DNA of 59,659 nt, the filler included. It is 8 parts of 8 records of this genome, joined end to end, with 100 filler letters (N's around TTAATTAATTAA, not from the genome) between each part and the next. Parts side by side here need not be neighbours in the genome. Positions count along the whole stretch, not along the records: positions 1 to 6,749 come from SRR31147125_15608; 7 more parts are not named here. One strand, written 5' to 3'. This document shows, piece by piece, positions 1 to 12,963 of the stretch. The position numbers were made by a program, and so were the translations under genes. How positions within the stretch are numbered: position 1 is the first letter of the stretch; every line of letters starts with the position of its first letter. Below the pieces are notes generated by a model. The model did not search any database, was not told the DNA's origin, and saw only the letters and a program-made list of their open reading frames with translations.

Positions 1-232
1 AAAAAAATTCCCCACTCCTTGGAATCATTTAGAAGCAGGTATTATGTTTGGATTAGGATTACCTCTTTTAGTTTTCAAAGAAGAAGGAATAACTGGTGGC
101 ATTTTTGATAATGGCGTTGCAGATGTTTATGTACATCAGTTACCTAATCCTGATGAAATATCAAATAATTCGAAGTTAAAAGAAGTCATAATTAAATGGC
201 AATCAAATGTTCGAGAAAAATACTATAAATAG
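1..232 (+). CDS. TIR/nucleoside-deoxyribosyltransferase-like protein, C-terminal fragment (5' truncated)
   Basis: Frame is open from nt 2: KKFPTPWNHLEAGIMFGLGLPLLVFKEEGITGGIFD. The W-x-x-x-E helix followed by a hydrophobic LPLLVF strand matches the catalytic-Glu region of TIR/NDT folds. Confidence 0.6.
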   Translation, partial: KKFPTPWNHLEAGIMFGLGLPLLVFKEEGITGGIFDNGVADVYVHQLPNPDEISNNSKLKEVIIKWQSNVREKYYK

Positions 233-252
233 CAAAGGGTTGATGAAAACAT

Positions 253-684
253 ATGACTGATGAAGAATATATTGAAATTCGAGTGAAAAATCAAATTGAT
301 TGGTACAACTCAAAAAGCAAGAAGAATAAGAATTGGTATTACACTTTACGAATTATTGAAGTAATTGCAGCTGTATCTATACCATTTCTCATCAATTATA
401 TTGGATCAGGTAGTGTTATAAAACTCATCATTGGCATTTTAGGTATTATTATAACAATCATTGCTTCAATAATTGGGATCTTCCATTTCCATGAAAAATG
501 GATTGAGTATAGAACAACTTGTGAATCCCTTAAGCATGCTAATTATTTATTCCAAACCAAGACGAGTCCATACAATGGTGAAGAACCCTTTTCATTATTT
601 GTCGAGCAAATAGAGCATCAGGTATCAAAAGAGAATTCAAAATGGAATCAATATACTTGTTCTGAAAAAACACGGAGAGCATAA
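253..684 (+). CDS. DUF4231 / SLATT-family two-TM membrane effector
   Basis: QIDWY..KS..NK..Y, two hydrophobic helices, then WIEYRTTCESLK..YLF....PY, the SLATT/DUF4231 signature. Confidence 0.85.
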   Translation: MTDEEYIEIRVKNQIDWYNSKSKKNKNWYYTLRIIEVIAAVSIPFLINYIGSGSVIKLIIGILGIIITIIASIIGIFHFHEKWIEYRTTCESLKHANYLFQTKTSPYNGEEPFSLFVEQIEHQVSKENSKWNQYTCSEKTRRA

Positions 685-1272
685 ATGGGGCATAAATGCT
701 TTATTTCTTTTAAAACTGAAGATATGGATTATAAAAAGTATATCCAAGAAAAATTAAAGATTGATATGATTGATAAATCTTTAGATTCTCCGATCAACTC
801 TACAGATGAGAACTACATTATGCAGAAAATAAGACAAGAGTATTTGTCTGATTCAACCGTAACGATTCATCTTATTGGAGAAAGAAGCTCTGAAAATTTA
901 GGCTGGCATGAACAGCGATACATCAAAAGAGAGCTACAGGGTTCGCTTTACAATGCTCCTCCTAAAAACACTAGAAGTGGTATCTTAGGAATTGTACTTC
1001 CACAAATGAAAAACAAAATATTTTTTGGAACATATCAGTGTGCTCTATGCGGGAATAATCATGATGGTGTTAACGTTAAAGATTATACTATCAAAGAATT
1101 CAGTTATAATTTCTATATCCCAAATGGAGGGAAATGTTCCCATTCTGAAGATGAGAGGTATTGTGTTCTGGCAAACTGTGACGAATTTATCAAAAATCCT
1201 GAAATATTTATTGAAAAAGCTTATCAAAAAAGAAGCTCCCCAATTGCTAATAAGGTTAAAGTAAAAGGATAA
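685..1272 (+). CDS. ThsB-like (MTH538/DUF1863) TIR-domain protein with Cys/His-rich insertion
   Basis: HKCFISF, IRQEYLSDSTVTIHLIG, YIKRELQGSL (catalytic Glu), GILGIVLP. ATG directly follows the upstream TAA. Confidence 0.85.
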   Translation: MGHKCFISFKTEDMDYKKYIQEKLKIDMIDKSLDSPINSTDENYIMQKIRQEYLSDSTVTIHLIGERSSENLGWHEQRYIKRELQGSLYNAPPKNTRSGILGIVLPQMKNKIFFGTYQCALCGNNHDGVNVKDYTIKEFSYNFYIPNGGKCSHSEDERYCVLANCDEFIKNPEIFIEKAYQKRSSPIANKVKVKG

Positions 1273-1340
1273 AGTTCTGCAACTTTATTATGATATACAT
1301 TAATATTACTTTGCGATTGCCATGGTATAGCACAATTAAC

Positions 1341-1832
1341 GAGCCTGTAAGGTTTTCTGTGTAACTGGCATTCTTAATCTTGGGAAACCCTCTCCCCATA
1401 TTCCAACAAAAATCGATTCATAGCCGGTCCCCAATCCCGGATCGGCATGGTCCAACGCTTAGACGCTTCCTGTATCGCCAAATAGACAATCTTAATGGTT
1501 GATGTGTCATTGAGAAAGATCCTCCGGTTCTTAATCCACTTCCGAATGACACTGTTCAATAATTCAATAGCATTCGTGGTATAGATCACCTTCCTGATCT
1601 AATCAGGGTATTCATACATCGTAATCAGATTCTTTCAACTACGCTCCCACATTTTGCTGATCGCGCCATACTTGCTGTCCCATTTAACAGAGAACTCCAG
1701 CAGTTCAGCCCAGCTTCTTCAATCATCACTGAAGCATAGACCTTCTTCAAATCCTATGTCTCTGGTTGTTTGGCCCTTAGCATACAGCATGAGAATCTTG
1801 TCATCCAGACCGGCAAATCGTCGTTGGTGACA
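1341..1832 (-). mobile_element. IS256-family remnant (internally deleted, frameshifted transposase; one terminal inverted repeat left)
   Basis: Minus strand encodes HQRRFAGLDDKILMLYAKGQTTRDI fused to DLKKVY...KWDSKYGAISKMW...RKVIYTTNAIELLNSVIRK...RWTMPIRDW. IS256-type end gagcctgtaaggttttctgtgtaact at 1341-1366. Confidence 0.85.
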
Positions 1833-1957
1833 GCATAAACTGCTCAATCGACCCGAAGGGTTGGTGCGATTTTTGAGTGGAGGAACGATTAGTTCCGTAA
1901 CGGCCGAAGGTAAAAAATCGTGACAAAGATTGGGGCAGTTTCATGCGTTTGTTATAA
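1833..1957 (-). other. attC integron recombination site, truncated (R' box lost)
   Basis: Just after the TGA of the 3410-1959 gene, minus strand reads TTATAAC-AAAC-GCATGAAACTGCCCCAATC...GATTGAGCAGTTTATGC: R'', L'' with an extra base, and L'. IS256 sequence follows where the GTT box should be. Confidence 0.75.
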
Positions 1958-1958
1958 A

Positions 1959-3410
1959 TCAACTTAATGCAATATCTCGAAATCTCTCTTGTAATATATT
2001 TTCACAATAATCTATCCCACCTTTTTCATAATTCATTAGCATATTCAATAAATCGTTATCAACAATTGGAATTATCAGACCCCTTTGGTCATGGTATGTA
2101 TCACGACATCTTTTAATGAACTTTTCCATTTTATTAATATCTCTACAAAGAATAAGACCGAATTTACCACGATTAGGACTAAATCTACTTGAAATTTGAT
2201 CCAATTCAGGATTCTTTACATCTCTGGAATAGTTTTTACATTCAACGATTATAAATGGTGATGGAATTTGATATGTATTTACTATTCTGAAAAAGAATCC
2301 TGTTTCTGCTGCGTTATCAAAAGTGATATCGATTCTTTTTCTACCTTCATGGATTTCTCGTTCTTTGATAGGTGATGTAATATTAGGGTAGAAAAGCAGT
2401 TCCAAGATACCAACTGTCAGTTTATGGTAGCGACTTGCAGCTTCATTCCCTGGTTTTATTTCATCTATCTGTATAATTAAATGATCAATGATTTTTGTCA
2501 AAAGATCTGATGTTAACTCTTCATTTGAAATATTTCTAACTTGTTTCGTAGTATCTAATTTGAATTTTTCAAATATTTCAGGATACTTTTTTGTAAACGA
2601 TGCTAAATAATCTTTACTGATATCTGCAAGACTATTTCTTACGCTTTTCTTTGTAACATATTTCCTAGTGATTTTACCTTTTTTATTTCTCCTTACCTGA
2701 ACAAGTGAAGTATTTCTAGTAAGGTGATCCTCTTGAAGAAAATTGAGAACAAAATGTTGTAAATATTTCTCTGGAGTATAATCAGAAGAGTAGGATACAA
2801 TCCTTTTGGGAACAAGTAATACTTTATTACCATTAACTAAAGGGATACTGGAATATTCATTTTTCCACTCCTGATTCATTCTATCCCAAAAAAATCCTGA
2901 TAAAATTCCATCTTGAATAGGAATATTCCATAATTTACATTGATTTTGTGTATACTCTATCAAATGTTTTTTTATAATATTTGTTGTTAAGTCTGATATT
3001 TTATCTCTACCTACTCCATCAACAAATATTCTAAAGTCCTCAAGATCTTCAACAACACCAGTAGTCATTGCTTTACTTCTTACTAGATTATCAAAAATAT
3101 TAATTGTATCTTGAGGACCTACTCCTCGACCTTGAGATTTTCCTTTTGATAAACCTAAATGTGTCTCGTTAGGTTCTTTTAAATGAGAGAAAATGGCCTT
3201 AGCCTCATCAGGTCTATCATTTTTCAGTTTTTGAATTAGTATTGAAAAGAAGCTTTCGAGTGTTCGATTGGCATCAATTGCCCATTTAAAGTTACATAAT
3301 CCAAGATAATAAGGATCTAGAAATAATGGTGTATCTTTCTCAATATCAATATCTATGAAATCTAGTTCAAACTGAGTTCTTCGTAAATTGAAATATTCAC
3401 TAATTTTCAT
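1959..3410 (-). CDS. Uncharacterised protein with C-terminal Mrr-like PD-(D/E)XK nuclease domain (putative anti-phage)
   Basis: RIDITFDN...IVECKNY...ELDQ motif. True start is probably MKISEYF at 3410 (AGGAGG upstream), not the ORF-track start at 3446. Confidence 0.7.
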   Translation of the reverse strand: MKISEYFNLRRTQFELDFIDIDIEKDTPLFLDPYYLGLCNFKWAIDANRTLESFFSILIQKLKNDRPDEAKAIFSHLKEPNETHLGLSKGKSQGRGVGPQDTINIFDNLVRSKAMTTGVVEDLEDFRIFVDGVGRDKISDLTTNIIKKHLIEYTQNQCKLWNIPIQDGILSGFFWDRMNQEWKNEYSSIPLVNGNKVLLVPKRIVSYSSDYTPEKYLQHFVLNFLQEDHLTRNTSLVQVRRNKKGKITRKYVTKKSVRNSLADISKDYLASFTKKYPEIFEKFKLDTTKQVRNISNEELTSDLLTKIIDHLIIQIDEIKPGNEAASRYHKLTVGILELLFYPNITSPIKEREIHEGRKRIDITFDNAAETGFFFRIVNTYQIPSPFIIVECKNYSRDVKNPELDQISSRFSPNRGKFGLILCRDINKMEKFIKRCRDTYHDQRGLIIPIVDNDLLNMLMNYEKGGIDYCENILQERFRDIALS

Positions 3411-3435
3411 AGGATATTTTATCCTCCTCTTATTA

Positions 3436-3981
3436 CTATCTAGCAACTATAAAGTGATCTTCTTCTATTACTCCGTTTACTAAATAGTAAAGGATACAAT
3501 CGATTGCTCTTGGATTGTAGCAGTATGAAACAGTTAGTCCAAATAAGTAGTTGTAGTTTGGATCATTCAAGAATGCAAGAACCTTGTTCTTATCATGCAT
3601 AGAGCTGATTTCTTTTTTGGCTTCAATAACTAAAATATTTTTATACTCAAGATCATCTCTAGTTCGAGAATGAACAATAATATCTGGCCTTACATTTATT
3701 TCACGATTATTTACAACCAGTAATTTTAAATTGTTGTATCGCCTGTTATATTCAATATCTGTATAGTAGCCATTTAGTTCTGGATATTTAAGAATCTCAT
3801 CTTCAATATATTTAGCAAATCTGTGATTGATTGTTACTTCATGAAGTTTTCTGTTCAATTCTTTCGCATCTGATGAGATTCTTGGATATTCGATGATTTC
3901 ATTAGAGATAATATTAGAGTCTTTTTCAACTAGCTTTATAAGAGCATTTTCAATAACTCTTTTTATATCATCTTTTACCAT
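3436..3981 (-). CDS. Small PD-(D/E)XK nuclease-fold protein
   Basis: HEVTINHRFA...DIEYNR...RPDIIVH.R...NILVIEAKK...DKNK. Confidence 0.75.
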   Translation of the reverse strand: MVKDDIKRVIENALIKLVEKDSNIISNEIIEYPRISSDAKELNRKLHEVTINHRFAKYIEDEILKYPELNGYYTDIEYNRRYNNLKLLVVNNREINVRPDIIVHSRTRDDLEYKNILVIEAKKEISSMHDKNKVLAFLNDPNYNYLFGLTVSYCYNPRAIDCILYYLVNGVIEEDHFIVAR

Positions 3982-3998
3982 ATAAAAATCCTTTGTAT

Positions 3999-4058
3999 AT
4001 ATAACACCGCTAATCAGCCGCGCGGCTTTTTGTGTCGGCTGAATTTACCTTGTTTGGT
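3999..4058 (-). other. attC integron recombination site (60 bp, complete)
   Basis: Minus strand: ACCAAAC-AAGGT-AAATTCAGCCGACACAAAAAGCCGCGCGGCTGATTAG-CGGT-GTTATAT. AAC and GTT cores, L'' with one extra base, located between a stop codon and the next RBS/ATG. Confidence 0.85.
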
Positions 4059-4060
4059 TT

Positions 4061-5143
4061 TTATATATTTTTATCTATTTCACTATATTCTCGAATTGTT
4101 TTAATCAAAAGCTCAACAGCATTTTCTGTATTACCATCTGTCATGTCTAACCATTGGATATTTCGGAGTAAGGGAGGTACTTCTGCTTGTTCAATTAAAA
4201 CAGGCAAAATGCGAGGTCCGACAGGACTTGATATTTGCCGATGCATTACATGTTGTAGTTCTTGTTTGGCCCCGCCACGAACTGAGTTGGGTGATATGAA
4301 GAATATTATAAAGTCTGCTGAATCTAAACTACGCTCAAATTCTAAGAACCATTGACTATCTGGCTTAAGGTTGGACCCTTCAAACAGTATTAGTCTAATA
4401 CCTGAAGCCTTTAATCCTTCGGCAACTTTTTTTACTATTTCTATATCAGCATAAGCATAACTCAGAAAGACTGAAGCTGCCAAATGCCCCAAGTCTGATA
4501 AAGCATTTGATACAGTCCTCCGAATAGATGAAAGCAGGGTTTCCTCGGAAAGTCCTTCTTCAATAGCGTTCGTTACTATACTTTGTATTTCACTCATTAG
4601 ATGAACAGGGGAACCAACATGTGCCTTTTCTCTTGCCTTGGCAGATTCTTCGATATCCCGAATTGTACGGCTAAGATCTGCAGCAACCTGAACTGATATG
4701 TCGTTTTTGCTTTCAAATGGCGCTACTGTATGTCGGGTTTGTAGTGTTGTCTTCCAAGCTTCGAGAAGTCTTAATTTATCAGGGTCACGCTCCATCATTT
4801 TCGGGAGTATTGGAACATTCTCTCCTCGAATATACACAAGGCAAGGTTTCTTTAAACGATAACCTTCACGATACTCTGCTTCCGAAAAAGATATTTCCAT
4901 TTCTGGAACAATTGATCCATAACGGTGGCCGAGAATCACAACTAGAATATTGCTTCTTCGTACTTCAGCCAAACAGGTTTCTATTGGTTGATTTGCTCGA
5001 GCCCCAAAAAACTCCATTGAATCGTGCTCTAATTGCAAGCGGCGTATTGCATCAAGCACACCCTCACGTTCCTCGCTAAGGTCACTAAATGTGCTACAGA
5101 CAAATACTGTTAACTTGGAGTTCATTTTTATTTCCCTGTTCAC
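4061..5143 (-). CDS. DUF4062 + TIR_2 two-domain protein
   Basis: N-term VFVCSTFSDLSEER...CLAEVRRSNILVVILGHRYGS...SEAEY (DUF4062). C-term VFLSYAYAD...SADFIIFFISPNS...KQEL...ILPVLIE...VPPLLRNIQWLD (TIR_2). Confidence 0.85.
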   Translation of the reverse strand: MNREIKMNSKLTVFVCSTFSDLSEEREGVLDAIRRLQLEHDSMEFFGARANQPIETCLAEVRRSNILVVILGHRYGSIVPEMEISFSEAEYREGYRLKKPCLVYIRGENVPILPKMMERDPDKLRLLEAWKTTLQTRHTVAPFESKNDISVQVAADLSRTIRDIEESAKAREKAHVGSPVHLMSEIQSIVTNAIEEGLSEETLLSSIRRTVSNALSDLGHLAASVFLSYAYADIEIVKKVAEGLKASGIRLILFEGSNLKPDSQWFLEFERSLDSADFIIFFISPNSVRGGAKQELQHVMHRQISSPVGPRILPVLIEQAEVPPLLRNIQWLDMTDGNTENAVELLIKTIREYSEIDKNI

Positions 5144-5240
5144 ATAATGGGTTACAGTTATTTTACATCATCATTCACACATAGATTCTCTTCAGTCTAA
5201 CTTCCTCATCCATAAGGTGCAGGTTCTTTCCATCGATGTA

Positions 5241-5247
5241 GCCTAAC
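5241..5247 (-). other. Candidate attI-like core (GTTAGGC) at the head of the cassette array
   Basis: GTTRRRY core about 100 nt upstream of the first cassette ORF, in an AT-rich context with no attC hairpin. Matches the reverse complement of that cassette's R'' (GTTTGGT) at 5/7. Confidence 0.35.
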
Positions 5248-5530
5248 ATAATTTATTTGCCCTTTTATTTAATAATATCACTGATTTATTATTGCTTTTT
5301 ATGTGTTTGTATATAAACCCAGCATACACTCTGTTATGTTTATTTATTGCTGTATAACTCATGATATAGCTTAGTTCTTTTTCTTTATCATTTTCAGATT
5401 GTTTCCCGTAATTACCAGATTATTCCAAATACCTGTTATATATAAATTTTAAGTCTGTATCTGTAAAAGTCAAGCAGTCTTTTCACAGGGATTACAAATC
5501 TGTTTATACTTATATGAAGGAATTATCATC

Positions 5531-5758
5531 ATGAAAATCCCAAATTTATCAGCTGAAACCTTTGCAGTAATTGAGAAATATAATAAGCACTTTCCAAAGA
5601 AATATATGCTGGGAACATTAGATTTAAATCCTGATCTTGAAGAACAGGATTTGGTTAAATATCTTGAGGAAGCCATTGATACGAATAAAACAATCACATT
5701 CCGGAATAAGAAAGTTTATTTAAATCCAAAAAAATTACCTAATGGTATTCTATTGTAG
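5531..5758 (+). CDS. Hypothetical protein
   Basis: 75-aa ORF with GAAGGA RBS and plausible composition; no recognised motif. Confidence 0.55.
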   Translation: MKIPNLSAETFAVIEKYNKHFPKKYMLGTLDLNPDLEEQDLVKYLEEAIDTNKTITFRNKKVYLNPKKLPNGILL

Positions 5759-5797
5759 AATTTAAAACCTAAACATTTTGCTTTTTATTGTATTTGA

Positions 5798-6749
5798 TTA
5801 GATATCTAATATTAAAGCAGCTTTATTGAGAAAAATCTCACAATTATGTTGATAAATTATATCAGGATTTTTTTCTTTTAACTTATCAACTTTTACAACA
5901 AACATATTTAGTTGATTATTCTTACTTTTTATATCTTTTTTTGGATTAAAATGGTTTAAGAATTCAATTAAAATCGTCAAACCGTAAGCGTCAAAATTCT
6001 CTATTTTATCTATCATATTATATTTAATTACATCAGAAAAGAAACTGCTTCTATACTTATAATTATTAAGCTTTGCTAGTGATATCTTGTTATTACTATT
6101 GGCTGATAAATAGTAATTAATATCATCTTGTCTTATATTTGATTTATTAAGTGATATACATTCTTTTAATGAATTAATTATCTTGATATAAGTAGGATCA
6201 TTCAGTAGTTCATTTTCATTACTAAAATTATATGTATTTGGATAAGTGAAATCATCTAACAAATTATGAGTCAATGCATATTTCTTTATTCCCCCAATAA
6301 ATTGATTTTCAACTTTTTCATTATATAATTTTCCTTTTAAAAAGTAAAAATATTCATAAAGGATTATAGTTTCATCAATATCGTATTTCCCATCATATAA
6401 ATACGTAAGTATCTCCTGAACAACTGCTGTAAACTCAGCATAACTTAAGTGATTATAATTTTTTAATGTATTTAAACATTTAGTCCAAATTGGGGTATGG
6501 TCAACAAACTTATCATTAATCTCATCATTAAAATATGATTTATCTAAAAATCCGGTAGTTATGAATTCAAAAACAGAGTACAAAAAAATGAAATCCAGTC
6601 CTTTATTCTGGACATAATTATTTATTATTTGTCTTCCTATAGTATCTTCTATTTTTTGATTCTTTTTTCTTTTTAATGAATCTGATAAACCGTGATAAGC
6701 TTGTAATTCAAGTTCAGTTGTAACTGATTCAGAATCCTTTTCGATATTT
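5798..6749 (-). CDS. C-terminal part of a large protein, possibly a KAP-family P-loop NTPase (5' truncated)
   Basis: Frame is open to the contig edge. FIFLYSVFEFITTGFLDK...EI resembles helical tails of KAP NTPases, but no Walker motifs are in view. Confidence 0.45.
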
Positions 6750-6849
6750 NNNNNNNNNNNNNNNNNNNNNNNNNNNNNNNNNNNNNNNNNNNNTTAATTA
6801 ATTAANNNNNNNNNNNNNNNNNNNNNNNNNNNNNNNNNNNNNNNNNNNN
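6750..6849. other. Artificial contig linker; also at 14954-15053, 20697-20796, 27090-27189, 33837-33936, 46577-46676, 53486-53585
   Basis: Identical 100-nt N-run/TTAATTAATTAA/N-run spacers with stops in all frames; GC content and gene content change across them. Confidence 0.98.
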
Positions 6850-6895
6850 CAAGCGTAAGGCTTGCTGGGTGTGCTCCAGCGAGCACGACTTTGAC

Positions 6896-7372
6896 TTAAA
6901 GCTTCTGAAGCAAAACTACGCAATAAGACTTAACTCCTTCACCATTACCAGTAAAACAAAGCTTCTCTTCAGTAGTTGCTTTTACACTTACTTGTGATAT
7001 ATCAATTCCAAGTTCACGAGCAATATTTTCTTGCATTGCTGGTATATGTGGCTTAAGCTTTGGTTGTTGCATTACTATGATTGAATCAAGGTTTATTACT
7101 TCATATCCCTCTTTTTTAATAAGCTCATTTACATGTTGAAGGAGTTTAATACTTGATATTCCTTTATACTTCGGATCGGTGTCAGGAAAGTGTTTTCCAA
7201 TATCACCTAATGCAAGTGCACCTAACATTGCATCCATTATTGCATGAAGAAGTACATCTGCATCTGAGTGGCCTAATAACCCCTTCTCGTAAGGAATGTT
7301 TACACCTCCGAGAATTAAATCTCTATTTTCAACTAATTTATGCACATCATAACCATTACCTATTCTTAACAT
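6896..7372 (-). CDS. ispF: 2-C-methyl-D-erythritol 2,4-cyclodiphosphate synthase
   Basis: [42 protein letters not shown] precedes ATG at 7372. Confidence 0.97.
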
Positions 7373-7389
7373 TTGATAACTCCTCAAAA

Positions 7390-8415
7390 TTATTTATATT
7401 TTTTCTCTCTAATCTCCAATTGATGTTTCTCATAAATCTCGTCATAAAACTCTTTTATCTCATCTATTGTTACAGTTGCTGTTCCTATCCTACCTACTGC
7501 AACACCTGCTGCTGTATTAGCTATTTTTGCAGCCTCTTCATACGATGCTCCACATGTAAGTGCCAATGTATAGACAGATATCACTGTATCTCCTGCTCCT
7601 GTTACATCAAATACTTCTTTTGCAAATGTAGGAATATGTTCAACCCTGTCCTCCATGAAAATTGACATTCCTTTTTCACTTCTAGTCATAATAAGGTGAT
7701 CTAACTCAAGTGTTTCTCTAATCTCTTTTCCTATTTCCAAAACATCCTCGTCACTTGATGGTATCTCTTTCCCAACACACTCACTTGATTCTTTCAAGTT
7801 GGGAGTCATCGATGTGGCTCCCTTATAATTAAGTGAATTTGATGGTTTTGGATCAACTAGTACAATTTTATTTTTTTCTTTTGCTAAAGCTATAATTTTT
7901 TTGGCTAAAGATTCGGTTAAGACTCCCTTGTCATAATCAGACATAATTATACCGTCCACCTCAGCTATTTTAGCAGTAAAAAGTAGTAATAACTTATTCT
8001 CAACCTCTTCTGAAATAGGGTGTTTCTTCTCCCAATCCAATCTAAGAAGTTGCTGATTTCCAGCTAAAACTCTTTTTTTCATTATTGTAGGACGATCTTT
8101 ACTTCGAATTATTCCAGTAGACTCTACACCTTTTCCAGAAAATTCCTTAAGTAACTTGTCAGCATTTTCATCCTTACCAACAACACCGAAAGAGCATACT
8201 TTTACACCAAGTGTTGAAAGGTTATTTACAACATTTGCTGCACCGCCAAGTACAAAAGTTTCTTTCTCAACATTTACAACTGGAACTGGTGCCTCTGGAG
8301 ATATTCTAGTTACGCTACCAACAATATACTCATCTAACATCATATCTCCAATTACAGCTATCTTTTTTTCCGAAAACTTTTCTAATATACTATTTAATCT
8401 ATCTTGACTAATCAT
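7390..8415 (-). CDS. rfaE1: D-glycero-beta-D-manno-heptose-7-phosphate kinase (RfaE domain I)
   Basis: [38 protein letters not shown]. Confidence 0.93.
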
Positions 8416-8496
8416 ATTTTCCTCCATTTAATACATTTTACCTCAACGCCTAAAATAAGGGTAAATTTTATCTTATAAATTATATCAGTAGAAAGA

Positions 8497-8522
8497 AAAA
8501 AACAAGCATGCGCTTGTTTTTT
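8497..8522. terminator. Intrinsic terminator downstream of the pilus operon
   Basis: aaaaaacaagc-atgc-gcttgtttttt perfect hairpin with A/T tails. Confidence 0.7.
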
Positions 8523-8527
8523 ATTAT

Positions 8528-10258
8528 TTAATTCTTAAATATTTTTTCTCTTATATTTGCACTACTATTTTTAAAGCCACTATCTGAAATTTCTGCGTTT
8601 GAATTTTCTGCATGAACAATTTCAGCCTTTATCTGAATAAATAGATCTTTGGAATTCTCAACATAAGTATCGTATTTAAATAAACGTCCTATCAGTGGTA
8701 ACTTTGAGAACAGTGGTACTGAGTAATTATTTTCCGTTACTGATTTTCTCTTTAATCCTCCGATGAAAACAACTCCACCATCTTGAACTCTCACAATTGT
8801 TTGAGTACTATTTTTCTGTTCTGCAGCAGAAATTTTCTGCTCTAAGTCTTCATCAGAAACTGTACTTGTAGAAGTCTTAAAAGAACTTACCTCAAGAGAA
8901 ATATTTAAAATAATTGTATCACCTTCTTCTCTACCTTGTCGAATAATTGGCTTTACACTTAATGTCGTCCCTGCTTCTTTATATTGCGGTTCCGTTGTTT
9001 TATTTCCATCATCATCTGTTTCTGTCGTCTCTCCAACATACTCCTCTTCAGTAATTGTTATCGTTGCTTCTTCACCATTTACTGTTACTAGAGCTGGCAT
9101 GGCTCCTACTGTAACATCATTTGTATTTCGAAGTAAGTTTAATGTCGCTGAAAATACTTCATTTGAACTACTAAGATATTTTGTAAAAGTAGCTACAGGA
9201 TTTCCTGTTATAACCGACACACTCGTTGTACTATCTGTTTCATCTGCGCCATCTTGATACGACCAATCTATTCCCAAGTTTTGTGAAATTGAATCACTTA
9301 ATTCAAGTACCTGAGCCGTTATTCTAACTTGACTAACGGGGATATCCAGTTCATCAATTATCTTCATTGCAGTATCTATATTTCCTTTACTACCTTTTAA
9401 TATCACTAAACTTTGCTTCTCTACAGATGTTACATCTATATTTTCAATTGAGGCAGTAACTACATCTCTTACTTCATCTGGATGTACATGCTTTAAAAAT
9501 ATTTTCTGCGTCTCTTCAATTTGCCCCTTTTCACTAATTACTTTTCCAAGAGCTTTTTTCTCTTCAATTGAGGACTCCTGTGTTTCTTCAGCCACATTTT
9601 CCTTCGTTAATTCTAATTTTTGCGCCTTATCTGAGCTTAGTGTTAGGTTAATGTTAAGTGTTTGACCAGCTTCAATCTCTAGGATATCTCCATTTTCTCC
9701 ATACTCCTCTGATGACACTTTTATAATATATGTACCTGGATCAATATTCTCAATTATATAAGTTCCACCAGCTTCTGCATTTACTGATTTTATAATTTTA
9801 TTATCTTTAATCAAACTTACCGTTGAGTTCTCGATACCTGTTTCAGATTCAGCTCTTACAACTCTACCTATAATTTGTCCTACAACCTCTGTTTTAGATT
9901 GAGTGCTTTTTTCTAAGATCATAATGTTGTTTACTTCTCGGATTTCTAAACTATTAGCTAACATAATAGCTTGTAAAATCTCTTTTAAACTTTGACCTCT
10001 TACGAAAAATAGATCAATGGGATCATTTTTTATTGATGACTCAGCTATTATCGTTATTCCACTTGTTTTAGATATTAAACTAAGTGCATCTGATAAATTT
10101 ACATCTTTAAAATCTAATTCTTGTGGATATACAATTCTTTCTAATTTTTCTGTTACATCTGCTATCAAAATAGTAAAACAAAATAGGAATAATGTTATTA
10201 GTATTCCTATTCTCGATTTTTTTGCTCTTTTATACAAAACTATGTCACCTTCCCTCAT
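8528..10258 (-). CDS. pilQ: PilQ/GspD-type secretin with inserted carboxypeptidase-regulatory-like domain
   Basis: N0/STN-like LDFKDVNLSDAL, N3 ...IIDELDIPVSQVRITAQVLE, secretin core (GTTLSVKP, VFIGGL, VPLFSKLPLIGRLFK). Last gene of pilMNO(P)Q. Confidence 0.85.
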   Translation of the reverse strand: MREGDIVLYKRAKKSRIGILITLFLFCFTILIADVTEKLERIVYPQELDFKDVNLSDALSLISKTSGITIIAESSIKNDPIDLFFVRGQSLKEILQAIMLANSLEIREVNNIMILEKSTQSKTEVVGQIIGRVVRAESETGIENSTVSLIKDNKIIKSVNAEAGGTYIIENIDPGTYIIKVSSEEYGENGDILEIEAGQTLNINLTLSSDKAQKLELTKENVAEETQESSIEEKKALGKVISEKGQIEETQKIFLKHVHPDEVRDVVTASIENIDVTSVEKQSLVILKGSKGNIDTAMKIIDELDIPVSQVRITAQVLELSDSISQNLGIDWSYQDGADETDSTTSVSVITGNPVATFTKYLSSSNEVFSATLNLLRNTNDVTVGAMPALVTVNGEEATITITEEEYVGETTETDDDGNKTTEPQYKEAGTTLSVKPIIRQGREEGDTIILNISLEVSSFKTSTSTVSDEDLEQKISAAEQKNSTQTIVRVQDGGVVFIGGLKRKSVTENNYSVPLFSKLPLIGRLFKYDTYVENSKDLFIQIKAEIVHAENSNAEISDSGFKNSSANIREKIFKN

Positions 10259-10694
10259 TTACCTTTAAGTGTATTGTATTTCCACTTGTTATCTCTCTGA
10301 TTTCAATCCCATCTTCATAAGGACTTAAAAAATATTTTTTCTTATCCACTTTTATTATTGTATTTCCTAAAATTACTTTTCTTTTAGTAGTTTCCACTGA
10401 AGATGAATTTTTTTCCTTAAAGAAAATTATACATCCCCACTTTCTATCTTTTCTGATAATGGTCTCAACTTTAATAAAAATATTATTAAGCTCATTTCCA
10501 GTTTTGACTGTACCACCAGTCCCAGTTTTCTTTATAACTTCACTTTTGAAAAAGTTTTTATCTTCCTGAAACTTCTTTTCCGCTTCTTTGAAAACTTCGT
10601 CACTTATATAATCTTTCATTGGGTTAACTTTGTTCGCAAATGTAAATACTGAAATAAGTAAAAATGACATAAAAATAAAAAATCGTTTATTCAA
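10245..10694 (-). CDS. Exported protein in the PilP position
   Basis: Signal peptide; lies between pilO-like and secretin genes. Confidence 0.5.
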   Translation of the reverse strand: MNKRFFIFMSFLLISVFTFANKVNPMKDYISDEVFKEAEKKFQEDKNFFKSEVIKKTGTGGTVKTGNELNNIFIKVETIIRKDRKWGCIIFFKEKNSSSVETTKRKVILGNTIIKVDKKKYFLSPYEDGIEIREITSGNTIHLKVNEGR

Positions 10695-11325
10695 ATCCTA
10701 TGTCACCACCCTCTTCAATAAAATATGCACCTACTTTAAAGCTAACTTGTACTAAACTTCTACCTTTACTATCTCGACCACTTTGAGTTAATTGAACCCC
10801 TGCGCCACGCATAGTTATTAAGAAATTTGAATTCTCTAGATAATATAAAAGTTTAGATATATTTGAAACCGTTCCTCTAACAATGTATGGGGTATACTTT
10901 TTCTTATAGCCCTCTTTATTCTCAGCTACCTCCACTCGACCAATAGCTTTTACATCTACGTCCAGGTACCTAGCTAAATCATCAATCATAAATTTTAAGC
11001 TTGTTTCATCTTCTAAACTTGAGTTTTCAAACTTTATTTTCAGCAAATCTAAATCTTCTTTTTGCTCTTGGTATATTGCAAATTGCGCATCATACTTTCT
11101 CTTCTCCTTCGTATAGGTTGTTTTGACTACTTGAAGGCTTTGACTGAGCTGTTCAATCTGTTTATTCCTTTCTCTAATTTTAACTAATGGGAGTACTACT
11201 GATGGAACTAAGCATCCAATAATTACGACTATTAAGGCAACGATTGCTATGATTTTAATCTGCTTATCTGAAAGTTCGGCTCTCAGGTCAATATCAAGAT
11301 TTATCTCTTTTCCGAATACTTCCAC
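10687..11325 (-). CDS. pilO: PilO-like pilus alignment protein
   Basis: Single TM, coiled coil, C-terminal GTVSNISKLLYYLEN; synteny. Confidence 0.7.
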   Translation of the reverse strand: MEVFGKEINLDIDLRAELSDKQIKIIAIVALIVVIIGCLVPSVVLPLVKIRERNKQIEQLSQSLQVVKTTYTKEKRKYDAQFAIYQEQKEDLDLLKIKFENSSLEDETSLKFMIDDLARYLDVDVKAIGRVEVAENKEGYKKKYTPYIVRGTVSNISKLLYYLENSNFLITMRGAGVQLTQSGRDSKGRSLVQVSFKVGAYFIEEGGDIGFE

Positions 11326-11347
11326 TATCTTTCCTCCTAAAACTGTT

Positions 11348-11914
11348 TTAGTTTATTTTTAACTGCATATCATACGAAAAACTTGATATTTCATTTTTTC
11401 CGTCTACTATTTTTTCAATATAATCTGCTTCAATATTTATAAATTTTCCACTATTTTTCAAATTTCGTTCAAACTGAAATACATTTTCATAAGAGTTTAA
11501 TTTTAACTTTTTATTTATTTCAGCTTTTCCACTGAATCTAATATTATCGCCTTCATAGGTTAAGCTATGAAGGTAAACATTTGCTGGTACTTCTTCTTGA
11601 ATAGTGTATAAAACCTCTGATATTCTTAAGTTTTGTTGGCTAAAAATATCTTCAACAATTTGAATACTATTTGTTAAATCTGGTATTTCAGTCATTTTTT
11701 TCCTAACTTCTTCTGTCTGTTTTTTCTTTTGTTTTATATCATTATTAAGTTTTGCTATCTCCTGCTGCTTTTTACTTATAATTCCTTTTAAGTACATATT
11801 TCCTGATCCCAAAATAAGTAGAACTAAAATCACCAAAACACCAGCAACTTTTGCCAGATTTTTGAATAACAATTTATATTTATACTCTGGAGTCAGAAAA
11901 TTAATATCAATCAT
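11348..11914 (-). CDS. pilN: PilN-like protein
   Basis: MIDINFL, TM, coiled coil, VPANVYLHSL...FSGKA...FERNLKNS. Confidence 0.85.
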   Translation of the reverse strand: MIDINFLTPEYKYKLLFKNLAKVAGVLVILVLLILGSGNMYLKGIISKKQQEIAKLNNDIKQKKKQTEEVRKKMTEIPDLTNSIQIVEDIFSQQNLRISEVLYTIQEEVPANVYLHSLTYEGDNIRFSGKAEINKKLKLNSYENVFQFERNLKNSGKFINIEADYIEKIVDGKNEISSFSYDMQLKIN

Positions 11915-12963
11915 CTATTTCACCTCTTCAATTACATTTCCTAATAAACTTGCAGACAATTCAGTCTCTAAAAGACTCTCTGCGCCAATTAAATAGTTAA
12001 TGTATGTAAAATCTAAAACTTCCACCTCTAACTCTCTTTGTAAAACTTGTTTAAACCCTTTTAAAAGAGTTGTTCCACCGGTAAAGTAAATTTTATCGAT
12101 ACCAGGCACTCTCTCATGACTGACATAAAATTCTGAAGACACTCTAAGCTGTTTCTCCAGTTGTTTGATAATGTCTGCTATCTCCATAAATAACTGTTGA
12201 TCTTTTGGGTCAACTGCAGTTTCAAATGTCTCTTCTGCAATTTCAAGGCTTTTCTTCATATTTTCAGCTTTTTCATAATCTAATTGGTAAATCCCTTCAA
12301 TGATATTGTTTATATCATTTCCACCAATTGCAACAATTCTCTGTAATTTAATAAAACCATTTTTTTCAATAAAAATTTTAGTTGCCTCTGCTCCAATATC
12401 AACCACCATTATGCTCTCTTCTGTTTCGATAGCATCTTTTTCTTTTTGCTTTTGCAAAAAGTTATACACTGAGACGAAATCCGGAACTATTTTTAAAACA
12501 GTTACTTTTAAACTGTCAAAAAGCTCTAATAAATTTTCAACTCTTGATTTTCTAATTGTAATAGCTATTATTTCTTCAGCTTCCGTCCCTAACTTTAAGC
12601 TAATATAATCTGTTAAAAACTCTTCACTATCATAATTTGGAATTAATTCTTCCAATTCTGTCTCAATTAATACTTTTTTTCCTTTTCATCAAGAAGAGGA
12701 ACATTTAAAAATTTAACTACAAAATCCTGAACTGGAAGAGATAACACCACGTTTTTATTTTTTAACTTTAACTCCTCAACAAGCTCTTTAACTCTATCAC
12801 CAAAAATAATAAAATCCTGTACATTTCCATTAACTATTGTACCTGAAGTTAGTTCAATTTTTGAGATTTTTTCAACTTTTCCATTTTTCAGTACAAGGCC
12901 TTTAATTGAACTAGTTCCAATATCTAGGCTAGCATTTACTTTTAGTTTAAACACCTGTATCAC
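11915..12963 (-). CDS. pilM: PilM actin-like protein, split by an apparent -1 frameshift at T7 (12674-12680)
   Basis: LDIGTSSIK...LSLP in ORF 12667-12963; VDIGAEATK, GGND, FTGGTT in ORF 11915-12655. One extra A gives EKKVLIETELEE. Confidence 0.88.

Follow-up and report, generated by a model that had tools for sequence, protein, structure and literature searches.

Two adjacent nuclease genes lie on the minus strand at positions 1959 to 3981 of the DNA analysed here, a 59,659-nt stretch (the window) of eight joined parts, the first of which, positions 1 to 6,749, comes from SRR31147125_15608. We favour, at a probability of roughly 60%, the interpretation that each is a single-gene nuclease defence candidate, unrelated to the other and mobile on its own, and that the two have come to stand side by side in a chromosomal defence island and probably share one transcript. 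Both products show a predicted PD-(D/E)XK nuclease fold and conserved catalytic residues, relatives of both occur in defence-island and mobile-element contexts, and the two families do not co-occur in the samples examined.

The upstream gene (3981..3436) encodes a protein of 181 amino acids (aa), hereafter the small protein, and the downstream gene (3410..1959) one of 483 aa, hereafter the large protein. Both open reading frames (ORFs) are intact, as an initial annotation of this DNA had described them, including the 25-nt gap (3411..3435, minus strand). Reading along the minus strand, the TAG of the small gene is followed by 25 nt and then the ATG of the large gene at 3410, with a Shine-Dalgarno-like GGAGGA 11 nt ahead of that ATG. 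An alternative TTG start for the large gene exists at 3446. The ATG, which gives the 483-aa product, is preferred because homologues begin likewise and M1 is nearly invariant in an alignment of 46 sequences. With relatives down to E-values of 5e-242 for the large and 4.5e-43 for the small protein, both genes are real rather than chance ORFs. Since the 25-nt gap leaves no space for a terminator, co-transcription is likely. The pair's promoter is presumed to lie within the upstream intergenic region (3982..4060, minus strand), where an AAAGGA ribosome-binding-like site is also found; a promoter and terminator scan of 1600-4300 remained at chance level (11 promoter-like sites versus 12.1 expected) and gave no significant promoter call.

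To judge whether the two genes belong together, each family's loci were inspected for the other. Small-family genes turned up on 151 metagenome stretches; of the 80 loci kept, none encodes a large-family protein (tblastn, E ≤ 1e-3), with at least 1500 bp of flanking sequence downstream in 40 and upstream in 39 of them. Conversely, an adjacent small-family gene was present in 0 of 25 large-family loci (7 from genomes, 3 from Bacillota, 1 from a plasmid and 14 from contigs classed as viral), 24 of which, counted from coordinates, have 650 bp or more of upstream sequence. The sole small-family match among the 25 spans 59 aa (E 5e-4) and lies some 5 kb from the large-family gene of a Bacillus mycoides plasmid (L093), with two Gabija-like genes standing between them. 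The closest relative fetched with flanks (69% identity) has no small-family gene at the corresponding upstream position, and the small gene was found in 0 of 5 genomes that hold the large gene. The initial annotation had proposed a functional pair moving as a unit, to be given up should the genes rarely co-occur; as they did not co-occur in these samples, that proposal is not supported.

Nor are the two families detectably related to each other: a profile comparison returned a probability of 0.17%, on which grounds we rejected a duplication origin of the pair. A Rosetta-stone type of fusion was sought in two longer small-family proteins, and direct comparison with both revealed no part corresponding to DUF8370, the N-terminal domain of the large protein. 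Predictions of a complex between the large and small proteins scored 0.59, 0.00 and 0.00 in three runs made without controls, and count neither for nor against an interaction.

The large protein joins DUF8370 (PF28123; residues 1-300, positions 2511..3410, minus strand) to a FokI/Mrr-type PD-(D/E)XK domain (residues 301-483 plus the stop codon, 1959..2510, minus strand). The former was assigned from PADLOC, PHROG, the PF28123 annotation of relatives and Atlas clusters, the latter from structure alignment, PADLOC and a conserved motif. This layout bears out the earlier description of an unrecognised N-terminal region followed by an Mrr-like domain. It had further been stated that the genes could not be matched to a named system; PADLOC, however, assigns the large protein to PDC-M36A, through models PDLC04597 (1e-47, residues 2-267) and PDLC04598 (1.1e-21, residues 293-463), and, more weakly, the small protein to PD-Lambda-3_A. 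In addition, phrog_27295 spans residues 1-480 of the large protein (4.9e-93) and phrog_30194 matches its N-terminal part (6.7e-16). A word-indexed search at E ≤ 1e-3 returned at least 4117 relatives. The top 120 range from 448 to 519 aa in length, and every one has a precomputed PF28123 assignment. The nearest Atlas clusters, at a score of 0.90, are 100% DUF8370, with representatives of 273-309 aa, the size of the large protein's N-terminal part. A local Pfam scan of the large protein and its relatives gave no DUF8370 match, but the Pfam copy used seems to be without this model; an NCBIfam scan gave nothing meaningful, and text searches of papers for 'PDC-M36' and 'DUF8370' found none. By name, the sources of large-family proteins include Spirochaetales, Acidobacteriota, Desulfotalea, Bacillota, Elusimicrobia, Gammaproteobacteria, Vogesella and Fermentimonas, and the spread is patchy: relatives come from many phyla, with matches in 4 of 401 Bacillota genomes.

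An AlphaFold2 model of the large protein was obtained at a predicted local distance difference test score (pLDDT) of 89.6 and a predicted template modelling score of 0.89. Structure alignment of residues ~301-483 with VIA-align returned N.BspD6I (Z 11.0), FokI (10.8) and the small subunit of R.BspD6I (10.6) as the top three matches, with 147-158 residues aligned at a root-mean-square deviation (rmsd) of 3.3-3.9, followed by LlaBIII (9.5), EcoT38I (8.9), AspBHI (8.0), SduA (7.7) and MspJI (7.5). Among 46 large-family sequences, conservation reaches 95% or more at D361, E390, C391, K392 and Q405. As modelled, the C-terminal domain has a PD-(D/E)XK restriction-endonuclease-like fold with a conserved, predicted catalytic motif D...ExK. 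The Pfam family Mrr_cat (PF04471) matches the large protein at 14.3 bits (E 0.046), below its 21-bit gathering cut-off, and is weakly matched in 18 of 46 relatives (best E 0.0021). The motifs singled out in the initial annotation—in the large protein DTPLFLDP (residues 26-33), EPNETHLGLS (79-88), GVGRDKISD (132-140), I360-D361, E390-C391-K392 and Q405, and in the small protein E48, P99-D100 and E120-A121-K122—are all present and invariant or nearly so across relatives.

Within DUF8370, conserved positions comprise D17, D20, D26, D32-P33, E79, N81, E82, G86, G94, D136, D140 and N144, together with a glycine-rich loop at about residues 91-100, an unusual set of acidic residues and glycines. Mean pairwise identity in the large family is 57.5% over residues 1-160 versus 55.5% over residues 301-483. 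The N-terminal domain is thus conserved as much as the nuclease, which argues against a variable sequence-reading domain, expected to vary more. A Foldseek search with the whole large model, in which the N-terminal domain was not searched alone, gave no match at E ≤ 0.001 in PDB or BFVD; a profile search of the large family against PDB sequences gave none either, and an Atlas search excluding DUF8370 clusters returned no usable match. VIA-align returned no PDB structure covering the N-terminal domain, in a list filled by the nuclease domain, so that this part was barely tested. Because nuclease-domain matches dominated the list and the N-terminal domain was never folded alone, the lack of a fold match cannot be taken to indicate a new fold.

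The small protein is a minimal PD-(D/E)XK nuclease of the PD-Lambda-3_A superfamily, with E48, D75, E77, D100, E120 and K122 as candidate catalytic residues; these six, along with K123, are invariant in a 22-sequence alignment of the family. The PADLOC PD-Lambda-3_A model matches the small protein weakly (6.4e-6, residues 36-131) and 33 of 35 sampled relatives at 3e-4 to 8e-21. No match was found in Pfam, NCBIfam or PHROGs, and 33 of the 35 relatives likewise have no Pfam match. A profile search of 1.84 billion representatives yielded 4001 small-family clusters at E ≤ 1e-3, of which 1795 reach E ≤ 1e-10 and 57 reach E ≤ 1e-30; the majority represent stand-alone proteins of 150-200 aa. A search of IMG/VR returned no relative. 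The AlphaFold2 model (pLDDT 91) has as its closest structure PDB entry 3ijm (Foldseek E 4.9e-4; Z 11.3, 131 residues aligned, rmsd 3.1), which is also the sole match of a small-family profile search against PDB sequences (E 0.017). Further neighbouring folds are the BpuSI nuclease domain (Z 9.7), TT1808 (9.2), a DUF820 protein (8.8) and DrdV (8.0). The modelled small protein has a PD-(D/E)XK core fold with a conserved, predicted catalytic D...ExK, and the assignment of both products to this nuclease class in the initial annotation is thereby corroborated by conserved residues and predicted fold matches. The suggestion that the small protein might be an antitoxin fits poorly: it keeps the full catalytic set and occurs alone elsewhere. 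Nor does the pair look like a toxin-antitoxin system: the two genes were not found to co-occur in the samples examined, and the small protein retains its nuclease residues.

Neither family has a conserved partner; the genes found around both are other defence genes, integrases and recombinases. In the small family, no cluster of neighbours extends over more than five loci, and these are mostly near-identical contigs. PADLOC models were matched by 9 of 66 immediate same-strand neighbours (BrxL, BrxF, TIR-TM, methyltransferases and several PDC candidates), and neither PD-Lambda-3_B nor PDC-M36 was among the 66. Recurring among 168 ORFs neighbouring large-family genes were only integrases and recombinases (3 + 3 loci) and an AbiLi-like ATPase (2 loci), the latter in both cases adjoining forms that consist of the N-terminal domain only. 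Twelve of 56 large-family neighbours matched PADLOC models, including type I restriction-modification, SIR2, PDC-S25 and pAgo-like ones; others match PDC-S42, an AbiO/Nhi-like helicase and AbiLi. On the Bacillus mycoides plasmid, the large-family gene stands alone between Gabija-like genes, an integrase and McrBC. Separately, a family of 161-164-aa proteins unrecognised by PADLOC is the same-strand immediate neighbour of the small-family gene in five loci (L009, L010, L012, L016 and L028), downstream in four of them and upstream in L028; these loci may simply be closely related contigs.

DUF8370 also exists without the nuclease. Among the four matching Bacillota genomes, three encode proteins of 318-351 aa comprising the N-terminal domain only, and the fourth the full-length form. 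Two of the three N-domain-only genes adjoin the AbiLi-like ATPase, an AAA_21 protein matching PADLOC AbiLi at about 1e-40. At these two loci (L090, 47-2448; L091, 1429-3752), the DUF8370-only proteins of 318 and 351 aa lie downstream of the ATPase and a ~100-aa ORF, possibly as a set of three genes with DUF8370 in place of the ATPase's usual partner. Of 103 plasmid records with a match, 99 cover under 80% of the large-protein query; the DUF8370-only proteins on plasmids are ~300 aa long, many of them on small Staphylococcus, Bacillus and Acinetobacter plasmids. Examples are a 13.6-kb Staphylococcus epidermidis plasmid (L095) and a 4.5-kb Bacillus cereus plasmid (L094), the latter with only two annotated genes. 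Plasmids this small are an odd home for a pure sensor domain, and the DUF8370-only forms imply that the domain is possibly more than a sensor.

If the two genes act in defence, as we infer, the large protein would be a stand-alone sensor-nuclease. DUF8370 would recognise a cue, probably the same one in all members of the family. This could be a small ligand, a phage product, or some property of invading DNA, for instance a modification or a structure. Upon recognition, DUF8370 might position or license the C-terminal FokI/Mrr-type domain, which would then cut DNA through D361, E390 and K392. By analogy with FokI-type domains, cutting would probably require two copies to come together. The small protein, for its part, may act alone or with host factors.

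The surroundings of the pair are those of a defence island, the neighbours being DUF4062-TIR, ThsB-like TIR and SLATT/DUF4231 proteins. On the minus strand, the pair is preceded by a gene for a 360-aa DUF4062 + TIR_2 protein (4061-5143; DUF4062 3.4e-24, TIR_2 1.4e-22, with a weak bSEFIR match), from which it is separated by the 3982..4060 region. Within this region lies a GC-rich palindrome (4019-4044), GCCGCGCGGC within CAGCCG...CGGCTG; a T run after it on the plus strand gives it the look of a terminator, facing opposite to both flanking genes. On the plus strand at the window edge, a truncated ORF (2-232) is followed by a DUF4231/SLATT gene (253-684; Pfam 3.2e-26 and 1e-12), whose product resembles a two-transmembrane effector, and by a gene for a ThsB-like TIR protein (685-1272; PADLOC ThsB 1.3e-13). 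The SLATT gene ends exactly where the TIR gene starts (684/685), and 2-1272 may be a separate defence unit of TIR protein plus membrane effector. Directly downstream of the large gene lies a broken transposase-like gene (~1374-1960, minus strand), presumably IS256-like, whose frame is interrupted by stops, leaving an intact 71-aa tail at 1374-1589.

Farther upstream of the pair, between the TIR gene and housekeeping-looking genes (from 6896), a very AT-rich minus-strand ORF (5798-6583; 23-25% GC) encodes a 261-aa product for which Pfam, PADLOC, NCBIfam and PHROGs gave no meaningful match. The repeat search reported an apparent palindrome at ~6750-6850, which is a run of N (an assembly gap or a stretch left out) flanked by TTAATTAA-type sequence. 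GC content is 42% at 1501-2000 and 38-41% at 4001-5000 versus 27-31% in the nuclease pair. The DUF4062-TIR gene is thus suggested, by its 38-41%, to be of different origin from the pair, and the differences between segments fit a piecemeal assembly of the island. No methyltransferase domain was detected among the six neighbouring products scanned, which for these neighbours agrees with the earlier statement that none is present. The portrayal of the two genes as one cassette was not borne out: no attC-like repeat family was found in 1-12000, and a simple consensus scan (not a covariance model) of 1-8000 for RYYYAAC...GTTRRRY gave a single pair, which falls within the TIR gene (4145-4292), with none in the window folding strongly. 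With no flanking R''...R' pairs either, we rejected an integron cassette.

Other explanations of the pair were weighed against these data. In the heterodimeric type IIS enzyme R.BspD6I, a large nickase subunit is combined with a 186-aa small subunit, and one might picture the large protein recognising DNA and cutting one strand while a recruited small protein cuts the other. The shared strand, the 25-nt gap with its ribosome-binding site, the standing of N.BspD6I, FokI and the R.BspD6I small subunit as the large protein's best matches, and a small protein of about the size of such a subunit with a full catalytic set all speak for this arrangement. We nevertheless regard it as distinctly unlikely: the pairing was seen nowhere else (0/80, 0/25, 0/5), the small protein is nearest to 3ijm, the BpuSI nuclease domain and DUF820-type folds rather than to a FokI-type domain, the families are not detectably related, the two longer relatives compared contain no fused form, and the six scanned neighbours include no cognate methyltransferase. 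It is very improbable that one or both genes are decayed, non-functional leftovers amid insertion-sequence debris. The broken transposase-like gene next door and the step in GC content at the flanks would suit such decay, yet both frames are intact, of full length compared with homologues, and retain every invariant catalytic and motif residue.

Two further possibilities centre on DUF8370. The large protein could serve a selfish or maintenance function of mobile elements, such as element competition or post-segregational killing, with DUF8370 as the working part. Such a role would account for the dominance of DUF8370-only proteins among the plasmid matches, the integrases and recombinases that recur beside full-length genes, and the 14 loci on contigs classed as viral. 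But defence genes, too, usually sit on mobile elements, the neighbours are mostly recognised defence genes and GenBank phage records contain no relative of the large protein, so we deem this function unlikely. As a long shot, DUF8370 might be a new, widespread immune module whose invariant acidic and glycine-rich motifs form a ligand pocket or provide a metal-dependent activity of its own. It would work alone, as on small plasmids or next to AbiLi-type ATPases, or fused to a FokI-type nuclease, and would here have newly recruited a PD-lambda-3_A-like second cutter; if so, the locus would be a two-nuclease system caught at its origin.

Several observations weigh against our preferred interpretation of two independent single-gene candidates. 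The 25-nt gap, shared strand and ribosome-binding site have the look of an operon, and co-expression could matter even without conserved linkage. The samples were modest and many metagenome contigs short. The 'M' in PDC-M36A suggests a multi-gene candidate, and there could be a partner 'B' which our samples missed. For both families, the defence role is that of a candidate. Finally, given that DUF8370-only proteins occur on small plasmids, the N-terminal domain can apparently work without the nuclease, and 'sensor' may be the wrong word for it.

A two-gene system would, if real, have constituted a new defence architecture; the evidence points to chance adjacency instead. The locus cautions that tight spacing within defence islands does not alone define a system. 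What interest remains attaches mainly to the large family and its conserved DUF8370 domain: the family's proteins, all of about 480 aa, number in the thousands, come from many phyla and are encoded in defence islands and integrase hotspots. Identifying the cue of DUF8370 would characterise a common candidate immune nuclease.

When set beside known systems, the pair recalls R.BspD6I in that a large fusion nuclease gene adjoins a gene for a ~180-aa, catalytic-only nuclease and in that both R.BspD6I subunits are among the large protein's top structural matches. It departs from that enzyme in its non-conserved pairing, in the lack of a methyltransferase among the six neighbours scanned and in the best folds of the small protein, which belong to other PD-(D/E)XK subtypes. 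More broadly, the large protein shares with type IIS and type IV enzymes (FokI, N.BspD6I, AspBHI, MspJI, LlaBIII, EcoT38I) and with Shedu SduA a layout of N-terminal recognition or sensor part and C-terminal PD-(D/E)XK domain, the likeness amounting to Z 7.5 to 11.0 over residues ~301-483 and a conserved D...ExK...Q motif. Unlike in the type IIS and IV enzymes, the first 300 residues, a region barely tested in these comparisons, gave no match to a known recognition domain or modified-base reader; no methyltransferase was detected among the six scanned neighbours, and Mrr_cat stays below its cut-off. Unlike in sequence-specific readers, the N-terminal region is as conserved as the nuclease.

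The small protein's counterpart is component A of PD-lambda-3 from E. coli, to which its match is weak and its relationship distant; PD-Lambda-3_B was matched neither among the window neighbours nor among the 66 neighbours of relatives. PD-lambda-3 appears in a listing with a PD-(D/E)XK domain (PMC10952713) and in a passage that describes it as an abortive-infection system and uses it as an abortive-infection control (PMC13190303), while the main text of Vassallo et al. 2022 (PMC9519451) describes neither the system nor its gene composition. For the large protein, no model named PDC-M36B was matched by neighbours in the window or by those of relatives (11 + 56 proteins scanned), and the likeness to PDC-M36A, to PHROG 27295 and to DUF8370 with a C-terminal nuclease is a match over its full length. 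Judged by these profile matches, the large gene is a further member of a catalogued candidate family and the small gene a distant member of the PD-lambda-3_A superfamily.

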